From positions 64,001 through 128,000 of the forward strand of contig JAUVNS010000002.1 in the NCBI GenBank assembly GCA_030599585.1: a DNA stretch of 64,000 nucleotides. The letters are read 5' to 3'. The notes below the pieces were generated by a model, which did no database searches, was not told the DNA's origin, and saw nothing but the letters and a program-made list of their open reading frames with translations. Shown one piece after another: positions 51,813 through 61,992 of this stretch. Positions within the stretch are counted from its first letter, which is position 1. Each line of letters opens with the position of its first letter. Made by a program: the position numbers and the translations under genes. The DNA is from Promethearchaeota archaeon. Its GTDB lineage: Archaea; Asgardarchaeota; Lokiarchaeia; Sigyniarchaeales; SOKP01.

Positions 51813-53342
51813 TTAGGTACCAGCTATTCTTTTTGGTAATCGAGTTTGTGCGCTGAGATTTTCGTGGAATAGCTTGTTAACCAAGTTAAATTTAACATCG
51901 TTGTATTGATCATCGTACCACAAGTTATTCAACTCATCTACGTCCTTTTTTCTGTCAAAAAGATCACCATAATCTCTATGACCTTCATATATCGTTAATT
52001 TAAATTCCTTTGTTATCAAATGTCTTAATCTCTCGTACAGAGGTCCAACTTCCTCATCATTTTCAATATAACAACAATCTCGTGGTTGGTCAACAGAATT
52101 CTCAGGGTCTTTTAAGACTGTTGACATATCAAAGCCTTGCATATCAGGTGGTTGTTTTCTTTTTGATATCCCTAAAAGGTTTAGGAGCGTCTTTGGGTAG
52201 TCTATAGAGCTCATTAAAGCATCTGTTACCCCCGGTTTTGTTATTCCCGGAACTCTCCAAATCATAGGAATACGAAACACACCCATATAAGCTGATGGAC
52301 CTTTAAAGAGCATTCCATGCTCACCCATTAAATCGCCGTGGTCACTGTTATATACGACGATTGTGTTGTCAGCATACCCTAATTTTTCTAAAGACGCTAA
52401 AATTTGCCCAATACTGGCGTCAAGTAACGCCACAGTACCGTATGTATAAGCTATGAATTTTCTAAGCTCTTCTTCATTTGTCTCTCTTAACATCGCCCCC
52501 GGCATAACATTAATATACGGCGCTAGATAGGGGTGGTTTCTCAAATTCTCGAGATCCTTGAAACTTTTTGGCAATTCAACATCTTCAGGTTTATACATAT
52601 TCCTATATTTTCCCGGGGGATAAACGGACTGATGAGGGTCGGGAAATGAACAATGTACATAGAATGGTTTATTCCCATAATCTCCATTGGCGTGCCTTTC
52701 CAAAAAAGCGATAGTACGTTCAGTTACATAAGCACTCGAATATAAATCGACTGGTAATTCGTGTTCAGTAAACACAGAAAAGAAATTGTCAATATTTTTC
52801 CATCTTTTCCGCATGTTCTCCGCTAATCTTGGAGATCTTTCCTCCAGCCAATCTAAATAATGGCCCGCCAAGCAAGCTCCATGCCCTATCACAGTTTCCA
52901 CTTCTTGGTACCCATAGTAAGGAATAGGAAAATTTTCTCGTACGGGATACCACCCTTCTTTTTGGAAAACCCAATCGTAAAAAGACTCTGCAGATTTATC
53001 GCCGATTCTATACGGAGCAGTGTTAAATTGATGATGCAACTTTCCAAAAACTGCTGTGTGCCACCCTCTATCAACTAGCGTTTGAGTAATTGTTGGGACA
53101 TCTTGAGAAAGAATCATACCGTTGCTTCTAACACCATGTACATTAGGGTAATATCCCGTTAACAGTGTTGCTCTGTTTGGCATACACATCGGGTTTGTAC
53201 AAAATGCGTTCGTAAATCGAACCCCTTCGCTTGCTAATCTATCTAAGTTCGGAGTTTTTAACATGTTATTTCCAGAACAACTCATGTGGTCATATCTATG
53301 CTGGTCGCTAATGATAAATAAAACATTCATTTTTTCTTTCAT
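51813..53342 (-). CDS. Formylglycine-type sulfatase
   Basis: SDQHR, CMPNRATLLTG (CxPxR), GKLH, SFPDPH, SDHGD. Confidence 0.93.
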   Translation of the reverse strand: MKEKMNVLFIISDQHRYDHMSCSGNNMLKTPNLDRLASEGVRFTNAFCTNPMCMPNRATLLTGYYPNVHGVRSNGMILSQDVPTITQTLVDRGWHTAVFGKLHHQFNTAPYRIGDKSAESFYDWVFQKEGWYPVRENFPIPYYGYQEVETVIGHGACLAGHYLDWLEERSPRLAENMRKRWKNIDNFFSVFTEHELPVDLYSSAYVTERTIAFLERHANGDYGNKPFYVHCSFPDPHQSVYPPGKYRNMYKPEDVELPKSFKDLENLRNHPYLAPYINVMPGAMLRETNEEELRKFIAYTYGTVALLDASIGQILASLEKLGYADNTIVVYNSDHGDLMGEHGMLFKGPSAYMGVFRIPMIWRVPGITKPGVTDALMSSIDYPKTLLNLLGISKRKQPPDMQGFDMSTVLKDPENSVDQPRDCCYIENDEEVGPLYERLRHLITKEFKLTIYEGHRDYGDLFDRKKDVDELNNLWYDDQYNDVKFNLVNKLFHENLSAQTRLPKRIAGT

Positions 53343-53423
53343 TTTACACCTAAATAAGATTTAAACTAAAGACAATATAAATCTATATCTACTTCTTTCA
53401 AAGTGTTTAGACGTTTGACAAAT

Positions 53424-54347
53424 TTAAGTGATAAAGTAAAAAACCAGCGCCAAGGCTCCTAATACGAAAATTACAATTCCAACAGCCTGTCCCATAGTTT
53501 TAGCAGATAATTTTTGGATATATGTAGAGGCTATTATGCCAGATATAATTGAACCGATTGCTAGATAAAATGAAAGTTCGAAATTAAAAAAAAACCGTCC
53601 TTTAATTGTAATACCAAAAATTTGATAAAATGAGAAAGTACATAAACCAATTATCATGCTAAGAATTAGAGCTGTACCAACTCCTTTTTTAAGAGGGTAT
53701 CCATAAATTATAACGAGTGCTAACACAAAAACTAATCCAGAACTTGCTCCAAATAATCCTGAATTGATGCCAACAAAAATACCAAACCCAATCGCTAAAA
53801 TATAGTACATTCGTGAGCCACGGGATATAAATCCTTTAATAGCATCTGTTTCAGATGTTAACTGCTTGTCAATCTTTTTATTTAATTCGGTTAGTTCTTC
53901 TTCGCTTTTTCCTCTTTTTGTGGTTTTATGTGCCCAATTCTGAGCCATTTTTTTAACTGATTCGTAAGTAGGAAAACCCCTCTTTAGAAAGAGAACCCCT
54001 AAGAACATAATGAAAATTGGGATAAACCACCCGTAAATGGAACCTAGAGGGGTTGTCATTAGAATAAAAACTCCGAAAAAGGTGGTAACTATGCCAATAA
54101 TGATTATTAAAAAGATATCTAATCTTATTTTAAATTGTTTTTTCCTAAGATATCCTATTGATACAGTGGCAGATGTAATCAAGTCATTTAACAGATTTAT
54201 TGCAATAGCTAAAAAAACATCTCCAGTGAATAATAGAACAATAGGAAGTACAATACCTAAACCAGTTTGACCAATAAAGCTTACGCTTATTCCTACGAGT
54301 GCACCTATAGAGATTAAAATTGCGATTTGATAAATTTCCAGAGCCAT
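53424..54347 (-). CDS. TauE/SafE (TSUP) family transporter
   Basis: About 8 TM with an internal repeat: GINSGLFGASSG...KGVGTAL. Confidence 0.8.
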   Translation of the reverse strand: MALEIYQIAILISIGALVGISVSFIGQTGLGIVLPIVLLFTGDVFLAIAINLLNDLITSATVSIGYLRKKQFKIRLDIFLIIIIGIVTTFFGVFILMTTPLGSIYGWFIPIFIMFLGVLFLKRGFPTYESVKKMAQNWAHKTTKRGKSEEELTELNKKIDKQLTSETDAIKGFISRGSRMYYILAIGFGIFVGINSGLFGASSGLVFVLALVIIYGYPLKKGVGTALILSMIIGLCTFSFYQIFGITIKGRFFFNFELSFYLAIGSIISGIIASTYIQKLSAKTMGQAVGIVIFVLGALALVFYFIT

Positions 54348-54392
54348 TATTTATTCACACTTGAGTTCCTTTTTATATATAATCTATTTTTT

Positions 54393-55916
54393 TTAAGTCG
54401 CAGCAACTCTCTTAGGAAATTTAGATTGCGCCTTAAGATTTTCCTGTAATAATTTATTTACCAACTTAAATCTTTTATCTCGAAAATCTTTTTTATCCCA
54501 TAAATTATTTAATTCGTGAGGGTCGGTTTTACGATCGTAAATATCGCCAAAATTATCTAGTCCTTCGTAAACAGTTAATTTGTAATCTTCAGTAACTAAA
54601 TGTCTTATCCGGGCCTCAAGAGGACCGACTTCTTCGTCGTTCTCAATTAAAACACAATCGCGTATTTTCTTTGTTGGATTTTCTAAGACTTGAGACATAT
54701 CAAAACCTTGCATATAAGGTGGGTGGTGTCGCTCTTTTACATTTAAAAGGTTAAGAATCGTTTTAGGAAGATCGATAGTACTAACTAAAGATTGAGACAC
54801 TCCGGACTTTGTTAGTCCTGGTACTTTCCAAATTAAAGGGATGTGACACGGTCCGACGAAAGGACATGGTCCTTTGAATAATAGCCCATGATCGCCCATT
54901 AAATCGCCGTGATCACTGGTAAAAATCACCATTGTATTATCTGAATACCCTAAATTTTCTAATGAGGCTAGTATTTTACCTACGCTATAATCTACGTACG
55001 ATATTGCAGCGTAAGTTAAAGCGGTAATTTTGCGAACCTCTTCTTCTGTTGATTCTCGTAAAAACGCTTTTTTAAAGGGCGGATTTTTTAAATGATATCC
55101 TAAATATTTATGGTGATATAAATTCTTTGCATCTTGAAAACTTGCGGGGAGTTCTATATCTTCGGGTTTATACGCGTCTTGAAATCTCTTTGGGGGATAT
55201 AGAGGATAATGTGGATCTGGAAAAGAACAATGCAAATAAAAAGGTTTTTCTCCATATTCACCCTTGGCATGTCTTTCGAGGAAAGCAATTGTTCGTTCTT
55301 GAACATAGGTAGTATTGTATAATTCTTCTGGTATTCCATCGCAATATAAACTGAAAAGGTTGTCGTAATTCTGAACTCTTTTTTTCATTTCATCTGCAAT
55401 TTTAGGGGCTCTTTCTTCCAACCACTCTGTATAATGACCAGCGCACACAGTACCATTTCCTGAAATCATTTCCACTTCGTCGTAACCATAATAGGGGAGG
55501 GGGAAATTCTTTCCTACAGGATCGTTTTTACCTTTATCTACCGCCCAACTAAATAAACTCTCAGCAGACTTAGTTTTCTGCTTAAACGGACCTAGCCAAA
55601 ATTGATGGTGTATTTTTCCAATAGCCGCAGTATGCCAACCTCTTTTTTGAAGCGTTTTTGTAATGGTAGGAGTATCTTCTGATAAATTAATTCCGTTGCT
55701 TCTAACGCCATGCACATTGGGATATAATCCAGTGAGTAGTGTTGCTCTGTTAGGCATGCAAATTGGATTAGTACAATAATAATTAGTGAATCTCACGCCT
55801 TCACTTGCCAACCTATCGAGGTTTGGAGTTTTTAGAATAGGGTTTCCTGCACAGCCTAAATGATCGGCCCGTTGAGCGTCAGTAATAATAAATATTACAT
55901 TCATTTTTTCTTTCAT
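54393..55916 (-). CDS. Formylglycine-type sulfatase, paralog of 51813..53342
   Basis: TDAQR, CMPNRATLLTG, GKIH, SFPDPH, SDHGD. Confidence 0.93.
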   Translation of the reverse strand: MKEKMNVIFIITDAQRADHLGCAGNPILKTPNLDRLASEGVRFTNYYCTNPICMPNRATLLTGLYPNVHGVRSNGINLSEDTPTITKTLQKRGWHTAAIGKIHHQFWLGPFKQKTKSAESLFSWAVDKGKNDPVGKNFPLPYYGYDEVEMISGNGTVCAGHYTEWLEERAPKIADEMKKRVQNYDNLFSLYCDGIPEELYNTTYVQERTIAFLERHAKGEYGEKPFYLHCSFPDPHYPLYPPKRFQDAYKPEDIELPASFQDAKNLYHHKYLGYHLKNPPFKKAFLRESTEEEVRKITALTYAAISYVDYSVGKILASLENLGYSDNTMVIFTSDHGDLMGDHGLLFKGPCPFVGPCHIPLIWKVPGLTKSGVSQSLVSTIDLPKTILNLLNVKERHHPPYMQGFDMSQVLENPTKKIRDCVLIENDEEVGPLEARIRHLVTEDYKLTVYEGLDNFGDIYDRKTDPHELNNLWDKKDFRDKRFKLVNKLLQENLKAQSKFPKRVAAT

Positions 55917-56042
55917 AATTATAAAAAATCTATTCTTGCTTGTTGGTTAAAATTAAAGTCTATTCTATTATTTCATTTTTGATGTTAGAAAATATAAAGT
56001 TTCACGTAGATATTAATACTCCCACCTATTACTTTTGGCAAG

Positions 56043-56050
56043 TTTTATAA
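56043..56050 (+). promoter_or_regulatory. Candidate TATA box for the leu leader/operon
   Basis: TTTTATAA preceded by purine-rich GGCAAG, about 50 nt upstream of the leader ATG. The context is AT-rich, so the placement is tentative. Confidence 0.35.
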
Positions 56051-56100
56051 GTGTCCTATAATTCACCTTTTAATAATAATTTTATAGGGATTAAAAAGTA

Positions 56101-56202
56101 ATGCTGATTCAAAAAACGACTAGAATTGAATCTAGGAATTCATTTGCGCAATTTTATCCCTTTTTATTGTTACTGTTAAATCTTCTCTTATTATTACTAT
56201 AA
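56101..56202 (+). CDS. Putative leu operon leader peptide (33 aa): MLIQKTTRIESRNSFAQFYPFLLLLLNLLLLLL
   Basis: Not in the ORF track. Ends TTA TTG TTA CTG TTA AAT CTT CTC TTA TTA TTA CTA TAA, directly upstream of leuA. Confidence 0.85.
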   Translation: MLIQKTTRIESRNSFAQFYPFLLLLLNLLLLLL

Positions 56203-56265
56203 TTACCCCTCTCTTCCATTAAAAGGAAGGAGATTTATATCTCTTTGGGGGGTTTTGTATAAAAC
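56178..56265 (+). promoter_or_regulatory. Alternative RNA stems, attenuator-like element
   Basis: ACCCCTC 56205-11 with GGGGGGT 56247-53; CTTCC with GGAAG; GAGAT with ATCTC; competing AAATCTTCT 56178-86 with AGGAGATTT 56228-36; GTTTT with AAAAC in 56252-65. Confidence 0.65.
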
Positions 56266-56281
56266 TTAATAAATTAAATAG

Positions 56282-57913
56282 GTGCAAAGAAAAATGGAAA
56301 AAAACAACAATGTAAGTGTTTCGCAAATAATGGAGGAAATTCGAGACTCACTTAGTCTTCCAGATAAAGCATATTTTTTCGACACAACACTCCGTGATGG
56401 TGAACAAACCCCCGGAATAAGTTTTACTCTCAAAGAAAAAATATCTATAGCGCAAACATTAAATGACATGAAAATTGATGTAATTGAAGCGGGATTTCCA
56501 GTTACTTCTAAAGGTGATTTTGATGCGTGTAGGTCAATATCTAAATTAGGTTTAGACTCTGAAGTAATGGGATTAGCGAGGATGGCAAAACTTGATATAG
56601 ATAAAGTTATTGAAGCAGATATGGATAGCATTCACCTTTTTATTGCTACTTCAGACCTACATCTTAAATCCAAACTTCAAATGAGCCGCGATGAAGTAAT
56701 AGAGCAAATTAATAAATATATTTCTTATGCCAAAGAGCATTACTCGACAATATTATTCTCAGCTGAAGATGCAACTCGTTCCGATTTGGATTTCTTAATT
56801 AAAGCAAATTTAATTGCAATTGAGAGTGGAGCAACGAGAATTAACATTCCTGATACTGTAGGTACCATCTCACCAAAAGCGTTCGGATATATGGTAAATA
56901 ATGTATACAAGGCAATTCCAAGTGACATTAGAATAGCAGTACACTGTCATAACGATTTTGGACTCGCCGTTGCGAACACTATAGCAGGATTCGAAAATGG
57001 AGCCTCGGAAGCACAAACTACAATTATGGGCTTAGGGGAACGAGCTGGCAATGCTTCTTTTGAAGAAACAGCAATGTCACTTTATGCTCTGTATCAATTA
57101 CCAATGAATATCATTACGCAAAAGATCTTTCCCACTGCGAAACTTATCGAAAGTTATTGTGGGGGTAAGGTAAAGATAGGACGCCTCCAGCCTTTGATAG
57201 GACAAAACGCTTTTTCTCACGAAGCGGGTATTCACGCTCACGCTATGATTAAAAACGCTCGAACTTATGAACCTATCACGCCTCAGTTAATTGGAATAAG
57301 TAGATCTGACAGTGTAGTGGATATTCTTAAACATTCAATTAAATTTGGAAAACATAGTGGTGGACATGCGTTAAAAGCAAAATTAGGAGATCTTGGAATT
57401 AAGACGAATGATAAAGAATTCATTAAGATAATGAATCACATTAAAGATTTTGGAGACAAAGGACATGAAGTTTCTGAAGAAGATTTTTTAGCAATTGTTA
57501 AGGATGTTATGGGAGAAATACCCGAAGAAGAACAATATGTAATTCTTGAAGAATTAACAGTTTTGACGGGTTCTATAACCCCTACCTCAACTGTGCGTTT
57601 AAAAATTAGAAATGGAGACTTCATAGAAAAAATCGCTTCTTCAGTAGGAGTTGGTGCAGTAGATGCGTCAGTCAATGCTATTGTTAAATGTTTTAAACCA
57701 ATGAGTAATATTAAGTTATTGAACTTCCAAATTGATGCGATTACTGGAGGAACTGAAGCCTTAGCTCATGTGACCATCGAAATTTTAGACATTGAAAGTA
57801 AAATTATAGTTAAAACAAGTGCTACTCATGAAGATATTGTGATGTGCTCGGTTTTAGCTCTTGTAAAAGGTTTGAATCTTATAGTTAAGAAAAAAAGTGC
57901 TGAAATGGAATAA
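56282..57913 (+). CDS. leuA: 2-isopropylmalate synthase (LeuA/CimA family)
   Basis: DTTLRDGEQTPG, IEAGFP, PDTVG, HCHNDFGLA, GERAGN, HEAGIH and a C-terminal allosteric domain. The likely start is ATG 56294, after AGGTG. Confidence 0.88.
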   Translation: MQRKMEKNNNVSVSQIMEEIRDSLSLPDKAYFFDTTLRDGEQTPGISFTLKEKISIAQTLNDMKIDVIEAGFPVTSKGDFDACRSISKLGLDSEVMGLARMAKLDIDKVIEADMDSIHLFIATSDLHLKSKLQMSRDEVIEQINKYISYAKEHYSTILFSAEDATRSDLDFLIKANLIAIESGATRINIPDTVGTISPKAFGYMVNNVYKAIPSDIRIAVHCHNDFGLAVANTIAGFENGASEAQTTIMGLGERAGNASFEETAMSLYALYQLPMNIITQKIFPTAKLIESYCGGKVKIGRLQPLIGQNAFSHEAGIHAHAMIKNARTYEPITPQLIGISRSDSVVDILKHSIKFGKHSGGHALKAKLGDLGIKTNDKEFIKIMNHIKDFGDKGHEVSEEDFLAIVKDVMGEIPEEEQYVILEELTVLTGSITPTSTVRLKIRNGDFIEKIASSVGVGAVDASVNAIVKCFKPMSNIKLLNFQIDAITGGTEALAHVTIEILDIESKIIVKTSATHEDIVMCSVLALVKGLNLIVKKKSAEME

Positions 57914-57945: not shown

Positions 57946-59220
57946 ATGGGTTTAACAATTACCGAGAAAATTCTTAGAGATCATTGTCAGAATAAAAAAG
58001 CTGTTGCTGGTGATTTTATTATGGCCGAAATCGATAAATGTTTGGCCAACGATATTACTGCTACCATGGCCATAGAAGCATTTGAAAAAGTGGTAGAAGC
58101 TTCTAAAGCTGAAGTTTTTGACTCTTCTAAAATCATTTTGGTCCCTGACCATTTTACTCCAAATAAAGACGTGGCTTCTGCTACTCAGTGTAAAATCCTT
58201 AGAGATTTTGCTACCAACCATAATATTACTAACTATTTTGAGGTCGGAAGAGGAGGCATTGAGCATTGTCTTGTGCCAGAGCAAGGATTGGTGAAACCAG
58301 GAGAAGTTTTTATAGGGGCTGATTCACATACATGCACTTACGGCGCACTCGGGGCGTTTGCTACAGGTGTTGGATCTACAGATTTAGGGGTTGCAATGGC
58401 ATTAGGAAAATGTTGGCTTAAAATCCCCGAATCTATTAAGTTCATTTATTCTGGTAGATTAAATGAATGGGTTTCAGGAAAAGATTTGATACTGTATACA
58501 CTCGGAAAAATTGGCGTAGATGGAGCTACATACAAAGCTATGGAATTTATAGGTGATACGATAAAAAGTTTACCTATGGCAGATCGGTTTACTATGTGTA
58601 ATATGGCTATAGAAGCTGGCGGAAAAAATGGAATTATTGAACCCGATAAGATCACCACATCGTATTTAGATGCTCTTAAAATATCGAAGGATGGTTTCTA
58701 TAATAGTGATAAAGATGCTGAATATTGTGATGTTATAGATATTGAATGTGCTAATATAGAACCACAGGTTGCACTTCCTCATTTACCTGACAATGTGAAA
58801 TCCATTTCAGAAGTTCATAGTATGAAAATAGAATTAGATCAAGTAGTTATAGGATCGTGTACAAATGGTCGGCTTGCCGATCTAAGAAATGTAGCGAAAA
58901 TTCTTAAAAATCGAAAAATCGATAAAAAGCTAAGATGTATAATAATACCAGGAACGCAAAAGATATATCTAAAAGCGATGGAAAGAGGATATATTGAAAG
59001 TTTTATTAATGCCGGCGCAATTGTCTCAACCCCTACTTGCGGACCTTGTTTAGGTGGTCACATGGGCGTCTTAGCGGAAGGAGAGAAAGCTTTGTCAACA
59101 ACAAATAGAAACTTCCAAGGGAGAATGGGACACGTTAATAGTGAGGTTTTTTTATCCAACCCCGTAGTTGCAGCTGCTTCAGCGATAAAAGGGTATATAA
59201 CCTCCCCAGAATATTTATGA
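57946..59220 (+). CDS. leuC: 3-isopropylmalate dehydratase large subunit
   Basis: PDH, GIEH, GADSHTCTYGA, IGSCTNGR, CGPCLG, STTNRNFQGRMG. Confidence 0.92.
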   Translation: MGLTITEKILRDHCQNKKAVAGDFIMAEIDKCLANDITATMAIEAFEKVVEASKAEVFDSSKIILVPDHFTPNKDVASATQCKILRDFATNHNITNYFEVGRGGIEHCLVPEQGLVKPGEVFIGADSHTCTYGALGAFATGVGSTDLGVAMALGKCWLKIPESIKFIYSGRLNEWVSGKDLILYTLGKIGVDGATYKAMEFIGDTIKSLPMADRFTMCNMAIEAGGKNGIIEPDKITTSYLDALKISKDGFYNSDKDAEYCDVIDIECANIEPQVALPHLPDNVKSISEVHSMKIELDQVVIGSCTNGRLADLRNVAKILKNRKIDKKLRCIIIPGTQKIYLKAMERGYIESFINAGAIVSTPTCGPCLGGHMGVLAEGEKALSTTNRNFQGRMGHVNSEVFLSNPVVAAASAIKGYITSPEYL

Positions 59221-59240: not shown

Positions 59241-59732
59241 ATGATTGGAAAAGCAATTAAATATAACCTAAAAAATATTAACACTGATCTAATAATTCCC
59301 GCTAGATATTTACTTAATTCAGATGAAAATTATTTAGCTCAGCACTGTATGGAGGATTTAGATCGCGATTTCGTTAAAAAAGTTAAAAAAGAAAATTATC
59401 AAATCTTGGTCGCTGATTCTAATTTTGGATGTGGTTCAAGTAGAGAACAGGCACCGACTGCGATTAAAGCTTCAGGAATTACATGTATCATCGCACCTTC
59501 TTTTGCAAGGATTTTTTTCAGAAATGCTATCAATATTGGCTTACCAATATTAGAATTTCCCGATATTGGCAACATAAAAACAGGTGATATTTTAAATATC
59601 CAATTTGAAAAGGGATTAATTAAGAATACATCTACTGCTGAAGAATTTCAAATCAAAAAGCAACCCAGCTTTTTACAACAAATAATTTCCGCTGGGGGTC
59701 TGATTAATTTTGCTCGAAAGCAAATAGAGTAA
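59241..59732 (+). CDS. leuD: 3-isopropylmalate dehydratase small subunit
   Basis: NINTDLIIPARYL, NFGCGSSREQA, SFARIFFRNAINIGLP. Confidence 0.92.
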   Translation: MIGKAIKYNLKNINTDLIIPARYLLNSDENYLAQHCMEDLDRDFVKKVKKENYQILVADSNFGCGSSREQAPTAIKASGITCIIAPSFARIFFRNAINIGLPILEFPDIGNIKTGDILNIQFEKGLIKNTSTAEEFQIKKQPSFLQQIISAGGLINFARKQIE

Positions 59733-59739
59733 TATATAT

Positions 59740-61992
59740 CTAAACAAAAGGTTGAAGTATTTTTTTATCTATTAACGAGAATATTGTTTCTATTTCCTTT
59801 GATTTGTAACCTTTATCTTGCATTAATTGTGTAGTAAAGCAGTATTCAGTCTTATTTTTTTTCATTAAATTTAAAGCTTTGTCGATCATTGCTCTCTCAT
59901 TTGTGTTGATTTTTGCTTTACCTACCTCTACAACTTTCAAAGGATAAAGAAAAGTTGTTCCTAAATGCTTTTTAAGTACTTCTTCAATTGTATTAAATGG
60001 GTTAAGATCCCCTTTGAATGTTTCAAGATAAGATCCGTATTTCTCTTCAATTTCAAAAGATAAAGCGCTAATTAAATCATAAAAAGATTCAGAAGGAAGC
60101 TCTTTCATTATTAAGATTAATCTGAAATTCTTGAACTCTGCCATAAGGATCTTTGAATTGTGGTAATCTAATTTAATGATTTGCGAATGTTCTTTAGAGC
60201 CCGTGAGCTCGATTCCAAAGGTACGTATTGCTTCTAGGAATCCAGAAAGTAACACCGTGTTCATTTTTTTCTCGGTGAAGACTTGATCGTATATATTTAA
60301 TGTAGATTTTTTTTCTATTATAAGCACATAATTCAGATTTAAAATGTCTATACATTTATCATAAATCGCCTCTTTTCGAGCGATTTTCTTTTTCTTATTC
60401 TTCTTTATTAATACATATGAAGTTGTAGAAACAGATAATGTAAGCCCGATAATTACTATTACTGAAGTAATAAGAAACCAATCAATAATGAGAGGTAAAG
60501 TTATCATAAAAACCTGAGTCGTTAACCCAGCATCAGTACCATTGAACCAATAAATATACGCTTTATATTCACCATCTACTGCTGTTTGTGGTAAAGCATA
60601 AGTAAAGGAAGAGGTGTCATAGGGGATCGTTTTGTTATCTGTATAAATTATGTCATCAAAGGTATCCGTTAAAACGAAGGTATAATCTCCGTTCATAATA
60701 GGCTCGGAGATAAAGAATTTCAATTCTTGACCTGCTAAAAATTCAGTTCGATCAACATCTAAAGCGAATGAAGTCGTGCTTGAATTAGCGGATATTAGCC
60801 AATCAGCCCCAGTTTGAATTGTATTGTTCGGAATTAAAATAAAATGATCAAGTTGATTGAATAGAATTTGAGATGTTACATCTATATCATCCCTACTCAC
60901 CCTAATGTCAGTCCAACTCTCGTGAAAATTGAATTTAATGGAATAATTACTAAAACTCTTTGCAACTATAGGGTTTACTGTCCAAAGATTATCTCTATTT
61001 TCTTGTATTTTAACACTCCCATTGGAGTTCAAGTTTTTTATTAATTTAATATGATATGACACATTAAACAAAATTTCAACGGAAATATTATTTTCAATAT
61101 GAATTTTGATGAAATCTTCGGATGAAGCGTAATTAATCCCGGAAATATTCAAATATCCCAATCCAGGCAAAATTGAGTTTGAAATTTGATAAGCTCCACC
61201 ATTAAGTCTCGCAGTCATATTAATTTCTTCTGGAGAATAGCTCCTATTTACTTTTTGTATTAATTTATATAAATAAGGTTCATTTTGAACTCCGTTAAGC
61301 CATTGATTCTCATATTCAGAAGAATGTAAATTAGGATTCGTTGGATCAAAATCGTTGTAAGCCCAATAAAAATCAGTAGACGGACTAATAATGTTAGAGC
61401 CATTTAGTACTAAATAATAATTACCAGGAGAGAGAGATATGGGATTTGAAAAATTCTGTAAATACCATCCTCGATCCATAGATACATTAAAATTAACTGA
61501 ACTATAGATAGTAGAATTGGGGTTATTATTTAAATTATCGTATCCCCTCAATTGAACATCAATCATTTCAGTAGTTTCAGGAGATTTGGATCCATATATG
61601 TATACTCCTTTAATTATAGTTGCTTCTGTGAGATTAATTTGCACTCCGAGAGCATACATTTTTTGTGCAGGATTTCTGTCAAAGATACGACCAGCATTAC
61701 TATATTCTCGATCTTCAATTGTTTTTATTTCTCGCTCTAACTTAATATCAGTGAAATTCAATTGAATATCAGTAAGATTCCAAGAAGAGGAAGGTATTTC
61801 TATATCAATGGAACCTACATTTTCACTAGTACCATTTTTTTCCCCAAGCTCGAGCATTGAAAAATTAGTTGGAATGGTTAAAGAATCTCCATTACTTTGA
61901 GCGTTAACATTATTTAGGCGGAAATTTAACCCAAGTAAAAAAATCAGCAATAAAATGTTAATAATGATTAATCCTTTTGTTTTCCTCAACAA
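59740..61992 (-). CDS. Single-pass surface protein with longin-like cytoplasmic domain (paralog 3)
   Basis: Signal peptide; TM followed by KKNKKKK; LIIEKKSTLNIY...LLSGFLEAIRTFG. Confidence 0.8.
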   Translation of the reverse strand: MLRKTKGLIIINILLLIFLLGLNFRLNNVNAQSNGDSLTIPTNFSMLELGEKNGTSENVGSIDIEIPSSSWNLTDIQLNFTDIKLEREIKTIEDREYSNAGRIFDRNPAQKMYALGVQINLTEATIIKGVYIYGSKSPETTEMIDVQLRGYDNLNNNPNSTIYSSVNFNVSMDRGWYLQNFSNPISLSPGNYYLVLNGSNIISPSTDFYWAYNDFDPTNPNLHSSEYENQWLNGVQNEPYLYKLIQKVNRSYSPEEINMTARLNGGAYQISNSILPGLGYLNISGINYASSEDFIKIHIENNISVEILFNVSYHIKLIKNLNSNGSVKIQENRDNLWTVNPIVAKSFSNYSIKFNFHESWTDIRVSRDDIDVTSQILFNQLDHFILIPNNTIQTGADWLISANSSTTSFALDVDRTEFLAGQELKFFISEPIMNGDYTFVLTDTFDDIIYTDNKTIPYDTSSFTYALPQTAVDGEYKAYIYWFNGTDAGLTTQVFMITLPLIIDWFLITSVIVIIGLTLSVSTTSYVLIKKNKKKKIARKEAIYDKCIDILNLNYVLIIEKKSTLNIYDQVFTEKKMNTVLLSGFLEAIRTFGIELTGSKEHSQIIKLDYHNSKILMAEFKNFRLILIMKELPSESFYDLISALSFEIEEKYGSYLETFKGDLNPFNTIEEVLKKHLGTTFLYPLKVVEVGKAKINTNERAMIDKALNLMKKNKTEYCFTTQLMQDKGYKSKEIETIFSLIDKKILQPFV

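Follow-up and report, generated by a model that had tools for sequence, protein, structure and literature searches.

Leader-peptide attenuation is a textbook bacterial mechanism, in which ribosomes act on nascent or freshly made mRNA. In the enterobacterial leaders leuL, trpL, hisL, ilvL, thrL and pheL, a run of codons for the end product of the pathway is placed in a short ORF before the first biosynthetic gene; in leaders of the leuL type this ORF is embedded in conserved RNA helices, its stop codon falls immediately before a stem arm that the terminating ribosome must cover, and matched leaders for several pathways are present in one genome. The leader that we describe here, located upstream of the leuACD genes of an Asgard archaeon, resembles them in all these features. 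It differs from them, however, in that its host is an archaeon with a TBP/TATA promoter, in that its Leu run, which lies within segment 1 in the leuL type, is found at the extreme C-terminus of the peptide, and in that one of its helices (H1) closes the leader's own start. Our results show neither a conserved terminator hairpin with its U-tract nor a demonstrable antiterminator pairing, and no similarity to the Rfam leader families; the lack of a conserved U-tract terminator, of a demonstrable alternative pairing and of an Rfam match is what sets this leader apart from the members of the leuL type.

Other leaders respond to different signals. In the ermC/cat-type and tnaC systems, it is a drug or free tryptophan, acting on the nascent peptide, that arrests the ribosome, and not a run of hungry codons, and the outputs are release of a ribosome binding site (RBS) and masking of a Rho site. 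Similarly, in the arrangement that we propose, a ribosome arrested near the leader end would alter the adjoining downstream RNA element, although here the trigger would be a run of hungry Leu codons. The closest terminator-free precedent is provided by the poly-Cys short ORFs of mycobacteria (the ‘Cys ribulon’, Canestrari et al., 10.1101/834739), where, according to the authors, stalled ribosomes block an RNA structure and no terminator is involved. As occurs with these, the archaeal leaders are single-residue-rich sensory short ORFs that precede cognate metabolism genes at several loci of one genome. In contrast, the mycobacterial structure sequesters the downstream RBS, whereas for leuA we could not demonstrate a sequestering helix, and the mycobacterial short ORFs are leaderless, whereas the leu leader carries a 5' UTR and a Shine-Dalgarno (SD) sequence.

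According to the preliminary description of this locus, classical leader-peptide control of leucine biosynthesis was not known to be established in archaea. Our full-text literature search, which covered few subscription journals, agrees with this view: it returned no report of archaeal leader-peptide attenuation, and one tool paper that states in general terms, without an example, that uORFs regulate genes in archaea.

The leader ORF and its genomic context

The DNA analysed, hereafter the window, is a stretch of 64,000 nucleotides from a 4.85-Mb genome with 32.6% GC (features in Table 1). The host had been taken to be an Asgard archaeon, and this label stands, because the genome encodes TBP genes and its LeuA has close relatives in records named Promethearchaeota or Promethearchaeia. 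The Leu-rich ORF that had been noticed upstream of leuA is real. Its last 12 codons (TTA TTG TTA CTG TTA AAT CTT CTC TTA TTA TTA CTA) encode Leu in 11 cases and include all six synonymous Leu codons, and 91 nt separate its stop from the leuA ATG, which is found at 56294 and not at 56295. An ORF in which one residue fills 10 or more of the final 12 positions is unique in this genome: no other was seen among the 66,865 ORFs of 15–80 aa on both strands, and the leader also ranks first among the 3,880 short intergenic ORFs lying upstream of a gene on the same strand and among the 9,437 upstream frames scored by their last twelve residues. Being a 1 in 66,865 outlier genome-wide, the leader ORF cannot be attributed to chance.

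Table 1. Coordinates of the leu leader, its RNA elements and neighbouring genes in the window, and of the related leaders elsewhere in the genome (peptides are given up to the stop codon)
Feature	Position	Strand	Description
Sulfatase gene, upstream neighbour	54393-55916	-	Opposite strand to the leu genes
BRE/TATA-like box	56040..56055	+	AAGTTTTATAAGTGTC; some 55 nt before the leader ATG; presumed to be the promoter from which leader and leuACD are transcribed
H1, 5' strand	56068..56091	+	5' UTR including the leader SD-like AGGGAT (56086-56091); pairs with 56152-56180
Leader ORF	56101-56202	+	33 codons, translation MLIQKTTRIESRNSFAQFYPFLLLLLNLLLLLL; upstream of leuA
H1, 3' strand	56152..56180	+	Codons F18-Y-P-F-L..., overlapping the first Leu block; pairing AGGGATTAAA / TTTTATCCCT
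Leu run	56164..56199	+	Terminal 12 codons of the leader ORF
H2	56205..56253	+	Branched hairpin, outer stem ACCCCUC / GGGGGGU; begins 3 nt past the leader stop
A-rich linker	56254..56293	+	Contains the leuA SD AGGTG (56280-56284)
leuA	56294..57913	+	2-isopropylmalate synthase; Pfam HMGL-like, HCS_D2, LeuA_dimer; NCBIfam NF002085
leuC	57946..59220	+	Isopropylmalate isomerase, large subunit; Pfam Aconitase, E 2.7e-96
leuD	59241..59732	+	Isopropylmalate isomerase, small subunit; Pfam Aconitase_C
cimA leader	Contig C40:259374-259439 (= L096:2075-2140)	-	Citramalate synthase; Ile-rich, MRLRLIPLVGISILLIIIGII
hisIE leader	Contig C26:136166-136276 (= L097:2167-2277)	-	His-rich, tail ...SEHHHLHYK
ileS leader	Contig C28:118565-118639 (= L132:1276-1350)	+	Ile-rich, tail ...FIEIISEIIIQ
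leuS leader	Contig C21:128778-128870 (= L129:4540-4632)	-	Leu-rich, ...KKVLLQALLLSLL

The leuA product scores 554.8 bits against the NCBIfam model, whose cut-off is 517. The region between the sulfatase gene and leuA (55917-56293) is a divergent intergenic region. Directly upstream of the leader and in divergent orientation, a pair of sulfatase paralogues (509 and 507 aa; Sulfatase and SGSH_C domains) surrounds a gene for a TauE/SafE sulfite exporter (window 51813-55916, minus strand), and these genes may form a cluster for the utilisation of sulfated substrates. On the other side, a 750-aa ORF (window 59740-61992, minus strand) is convergent with leuD and shows a weak, sub-threshold match to DUF4082. 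Within the genus leuA is patchy: one draw of 24 sampled species gave about 8 with true orthologues, and another, of 12, gave none. The Asgard archaea of this genus, it seems, do not all synthesize the same amino acids.

Conservation of the leader and its RNA architecture

LeuA orthologues were gathered from relatives, from named genome records and from a phylum-wide sample, and they provided 56 distinct leuA leaders, belonging to two related Asgard families (f1 and f2, “Promethearchaeota” records). The test set beforehand, namely that relatives should carry a Leu-tailed short ORF with synonymous variation, gave a clear answer: all 56 leaders, which come from related genomes and are not independent samples, contain a short ORF that ends in Leu codons, and its stop lies at a similar distance from leuA (82–132 nt, mostly 87–99 nt). 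A TATA-like box, an SD-like site and an ATG accompany every one of these ORFs. Of the 56 leaders, 50 have Leu at codon -1, 53 at codon -2, 55 at codon -3 and 53 at codon -4; farther upstream the occupancy by Leu drops to about half, and the N-terminal part of the peptide is widely variable. By contrast, no Leu-rich leader ORF was found before leuA in seven other Asgard families (f3, f4, f5, f6, f10, f18 and f21), so the leader is a property of one lineage and not of leuA upstream regions in general.

TTA accounts for 71% of the leader Leu codons, compared with 45% in the genes of the genome. Within the genus, the differences in the Leu run consist of synonymous exchanges (TTA/TTG/CTT/CTC/CTA/CTG) and one 3-nt indel (leaders L002/L003), as expected if selection acts on the amino acid and the run is not a plain TTA repeat, which had been suggested from the window alone. 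All 56 leaders preserve the reading frame, the start codon and the SD-like site. Since the GC content of the genome is low and TTA abounds in the run, one could imagine a fortuitous ORF in AT-rich intergenic DNA, or a U-rich RNA or DNA element that is never translated. Both the position of the leader as a genome-wide outlier and the comparative data (maintenance of frame, start and SD-like site, an indel of 3 nt, synonymous Leu exchanges) contradict this idea, which we regard as scarcely credible. Hardly more attractive is the proposal that the ORF encodes a functional small hydrophobic peptide, destined for the membrane, whose adjacency to leuA is incidental. It is true that the C-terminal half is strongly hydrophobic in all orthologues; however, conservation is limited to the Leu codons and to the segments engaged in RNA pairing, the remaining peptide varies freely, the distance between ORF and leuA is fixed in 56/56 leaders, and the sister leaders described below carry runs of Ile or of His, which is not hydrophobic, matched to the gene that follows. 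We consider this proposal very improbable.

The sequence of the BRE/TATA-like box is nearly identical within the genus. Among the 56 leaders, a TATA-like heptamer starts between -59 and -50 from the leader ATG in 38, most other 10-nt bins containing 2–10, and a second peak is found between -39 and -30 (24 leaders). SD-like motifs (GGGA, AGGA or GGAA) are located at most 20 nt upstream of the leader start.

Two helices flank the end of the Leu run. H1, around the leader start, is predicted in 56/56 leaders (mean z -1.9); the 5' UTR and the start region form one of its sides, and the other is formed by codons whose end lies 24 nt (median) upstream of the stop. RNAalifold recovered it in a subclade of 13 sequences, with compensatory AU/GC changes, and in the sequence-based alignment of the subclade 89.7% of the cells pair, compared with 43–56% when the partners are slid. 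The YPF and SLEL motifs of the peptide would be conserved because they are the pairing partners of the 5' UTR within H1. The second helix, H2, has a minimum free energy (MFE) of -20.3 kcal/mol in the window copy, and an equivalent hairpin is found in 56/56 leaders, starting from -2 to +7 nt from the stop and ending about 50–60 nt on, with a median energy of -20.5 kcal/mol and a mean z of -3.4; among 300 ordinary 60-nt gene flanks of this genome, not one reaches a folding energy of -15 kcal/mol or below. The stems of H2 differ in sequence between clades and retain their pairing. The outer stem is 87% canonical versus 72% when shuffled (44 leaders), in a covariance-model alignment that is fitted and so favours structure, and its positions show AU, GC, CG and GU exchanges, with many G-U pairs. 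This covariation and the many G-U pairs indicate that H2 is a structure of the sense-strand RNA. RNAalifold gave no structure for the MAFFT alignment of all 52 leaders, and it was from per-sequence folds, subclade alignments and the covariance model that the leader structure emerged.

Between H1 and H2 there is a single-stranded stretch of about 30 nt, approximately one ribosome footprint, which contains the terminal Leu codons. The linker that follows H2 has a median length of 36 nt and is 55% A, and a search for a linker hairpin across the leaders showed that it is unstructured (z +0.25). In 36 of the 56 leaders an AGG, corresponding to the leuA SD, is found 11–13 nt upstream of the ATG. The window copy has four T residues (56253-56256) after the G-run of the H2 outer stem, T56253 being the final paired base of H2.

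Is H2, or a part of it, an intrinsic terminator with its U-tract, so that a ribosome stalled on the Leu codons would favour an antiterminator, as in bacteria? The window copy, where the outer stem ends in GGGGGG and runs into TTTT, does suggest it, as does the presence of UUUUG after a small hairpin just before hisIE in the His leader of this genome; the consensus scan gave one terminator-like site, but within H2, and alternative pairings exist in the window copy (I1, I10 and I11), though their register is not conserved. However, a tract of T5 or longer within 15 nt past H2 is present in only 4/56 leaders and one of T4 or longer in 14/56, the window copy having T4, and T5 or longer anywhere between the stop and leuA is found in 18/56, no more than in ordinary upstream regions. 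Hairpins are not known to be needed for termination by archaeal RNA polymerase. Of the real gene ends of this genome, 36–50% have T5 or longer within 30–50 nt and lack hairpins, so that its terminators resemble hairpin-less oligo-T tracts, and hairpins are absent from ordinary 3' flanks. Because T5 or longer is rare after H2, and gene ends with T5 or longer are free of hairpins, the TTTT after the G-run of the window is best seen as a feature of its genus only. Furthermore, we found no conserved helix of the mutually exclusive kind, H1 and H2 being the only conserved helices that recur, and no Rfam leader family was matched: the four matches given by a cmscan of 55800-56400 (E up to 10) were weak and unrelated, with neither the Rfam Leu_leader nor any other leader family among them. 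A bacterial-type transcription attenuator thus appears improbable to us.

Matched leaders of other amino-acid genes

A screen for runs of cognate codons had also been suggested for the leaders of ilv, trp, his, thr and leuB, and the same genome contains His codons before hisIE, Ile codons before cimA and ileS, and Leu codons before leuS (Table 1). Each of these four leaders has a hairpin at or just past its stop. The gene following the first Ile-rich leader is cimA (TIGR00977, 678 bits). The leader peptide ends in ...ISILLIIIGII, its stop lies 68 nt upstream of the first ATG, and a 12-bp hairpin 3 nt past the stop includes the cimA start codon inside its 3' arm. Ile-rich leaders are also present before cimA in three other genomes (G035, G036 and G040), and cimA was not found in the 24 other genomes of the genus that were searched. 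The hisIE leader, whose stop is 85 nt before hisIE, has a 13-bp hairpin starting at the stop codon and then the small hairpin and the UUUUG mentioned above, just before the SD; this leader is conserved at the same distance in four relatives (G015, G011, G007 and G023), with tails such as HLHHHQHHK.

The two synthetase leaders lie farther from their genes in this genome. The ileS leader ends 129 nt before the first ATG, with a hairpin after its stop, and the second ileS copy (contig C34) has no Ile-rich ORF by the criterion used. The leuS leader (tail ...LLQALLLSLL) ends 156 nt before the first ATG, and a hairpin of -18 kcal/mol starts from its stop codon. By the criterion used, no Arg-rich leader was found within 450 nt of argJ. 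The search for a Trp leader found no TrpE (PF00425) in this genome (100% complete, 8.9% contamination). Runs of W, C, R, V, T, M and F that scored highly were rejected as matched leaders, as the genes downstream are unrelated: they code for zinc-ribbon, MeaB, flavodoxin/metallo-beta-lactamase or TPR proteins, or have no Pfam match.

The match between the codon run and the product of the gene that follows is the strongest argument that the ribosome reads these runs as codons.

Proposed regulation of leuACD and its implications

Considered as a whole, these data are best explained if translation of the leader ORF reports the supply of charged tRNA-Leu to leuACD, which we think likely. The comparison of leaders strongly supports a ribosome-read leucine sensor in this Asgard lineage. 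The Asgard archaea that carry this leader probably gauge their leucine supply with the ribosome, because an ORF with a conserved Leu run, situated between two conserved helices, precedes the leu genes of the host and of more than 55 related species. The conserved ATG, the SD-like site and the synonymous variation are signs of translation, and suggest that the leader ORF is translated; ribosomes would stall on the Leu run, and, by analogy with bacterial attenuators, the output of leuACD would rise under leucine starvation.

We propose that transcription would proceed from the conserved TATA-like box, and that the RNA would fold into H1, joining the 5' UTR, the SD and the start with the codons that precede the run, and into H2, after the stop. 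When Leu-tRNA is plentiful, the ribosome would reach the stop, open the base of H2 briefly and depart, and H1 would reclose over the leader start. When Leu-tRNA is scarce, the ribosome would stay parked at the Leu codons that end the ORF, abutting the base of H2. The presence of a parked or of a released ribosome would set the folding state of H2 and H1, and hence the output of leuACD. Assuming that the ribosome footprint extends about 12 nt past the A site, the base of H2 would be opened by a ribosome that occupies the stop or either of the two final Leu codons, while one stalled farther upstream would leave H2 closed and keep H1 open; by this geometry, the position of the ribosome must govern the state of both helices. 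As contact with H2 is expected only for stalls at the two final codons, we infer the link between stalling and H2 from the geometry. The claim made at the outset, that stalling on the Leu run switches on leuACD, therefore divides in two: the sensor part gains support from the 56 conserved leaders and from the matched sister leaders, while the switch part does not, there being no conserved oligo-T terminator after the hairpin, and the leuA leaders being ones in which we could discern neither a terminator/antiterminator pair nor a helix that sequesters the RBS.

Which step would be controlled? Tentatively, it may be the continuation of transcription past H2, by a means other than a hairpin with a U-tract, as for instance factor-dependent termination on RNA exposed by an open H2. 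Initiation of leuA translation seems a rather unlikely point of control, and the stabilisation of the mRNA by the parked ribosome an improbable one. Coupling by frameshift or read-through across H2 was excluded, as neither the +1 nor the -1 frame is consistently kept open.

The case for control of translation deserves to be set out, since it would bring the leader close to the ermC and the mycobacterial poly-Cys types: the leuA RBS would be masked, for example by pairing of the U-rich Leu tail with the A-rich linker in a helix stacked on H2, and the parked ribosome would unmask it. The composition of both segments (54% U in the tail, 55% A in the linker) is suited to such pairing, the ensemble is predicted to contain about 16 base pairs between tail and linker, and the MFE structure of the window copy extends H2 through this pairing up to the SD and the AUG. 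The post-stop hairpin of the sister cimA leader, whose 3' arm takes in the cimA start codon, points in the same direction, and the mycobacterial system offers a precedent (10.1101/834739). However, the tail-linker pairing is not above that obtained with dinucleotide-shuffled linkers (32/56 exceed the control mean) and has no conserved register, and H2 ends about 36 nt before the leuA ATG. The modelled probability that the leuA SD and AUG are unpaired is 0.52 in the free RNA versus 0.58–0.62 with a ribosome on the run or at the stop, the RBS region looking open in all the modelled states, and among the 56 leaders we found no conserved helix that would hide the leuA RBS. Translational attenuation of this kind is, in our judgement, unlikely, even though it has several points in its favour.

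Returning to the leader as a sensor of charged tRNA-Leu, a possibility is that, through H2, the ribosome gates factor-dependent termination or the fate of the mRNA. A broader reading, to which we would give somewhat less than an even chance, is that Asgard archaea of the Lokiarchaeia type run genome-wide, ribosome-read amino-acid sensors, in a manner mechanistically distinct from bacterial attenuation. Taken jointly, this reading would comprise sensors in the Leu, Ile and His biosynthetic pathways and others at the leuS and ileS synthetase genes, with a shared architecture made of a helix over the leader start, cognate codons placed last in the ORF and a stop-codon hairpin, and with no hairpin-plus-U terminator. 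If it is true, archaeal attenuation would be distinct from the bacterial one because this architecture would work without such a terminator.

What would such sensors mean for these organisms? Since leuA is patchy within the genus, the leader would mark the Lokiarchaeia lineages that still regulate their own leucine synthesis, and unannotated regulatory genes would be added to Asgard genomes. The leaders would also be natural and easily mutated reporters for transcription-translation coupling, for termination or for the control of mRNA fate in Asgard archaea. If our interpretation is correct, amino-acid sensing by the ribosome would exist outside the bacteria, in the archaea that are closest to eukaryotes.
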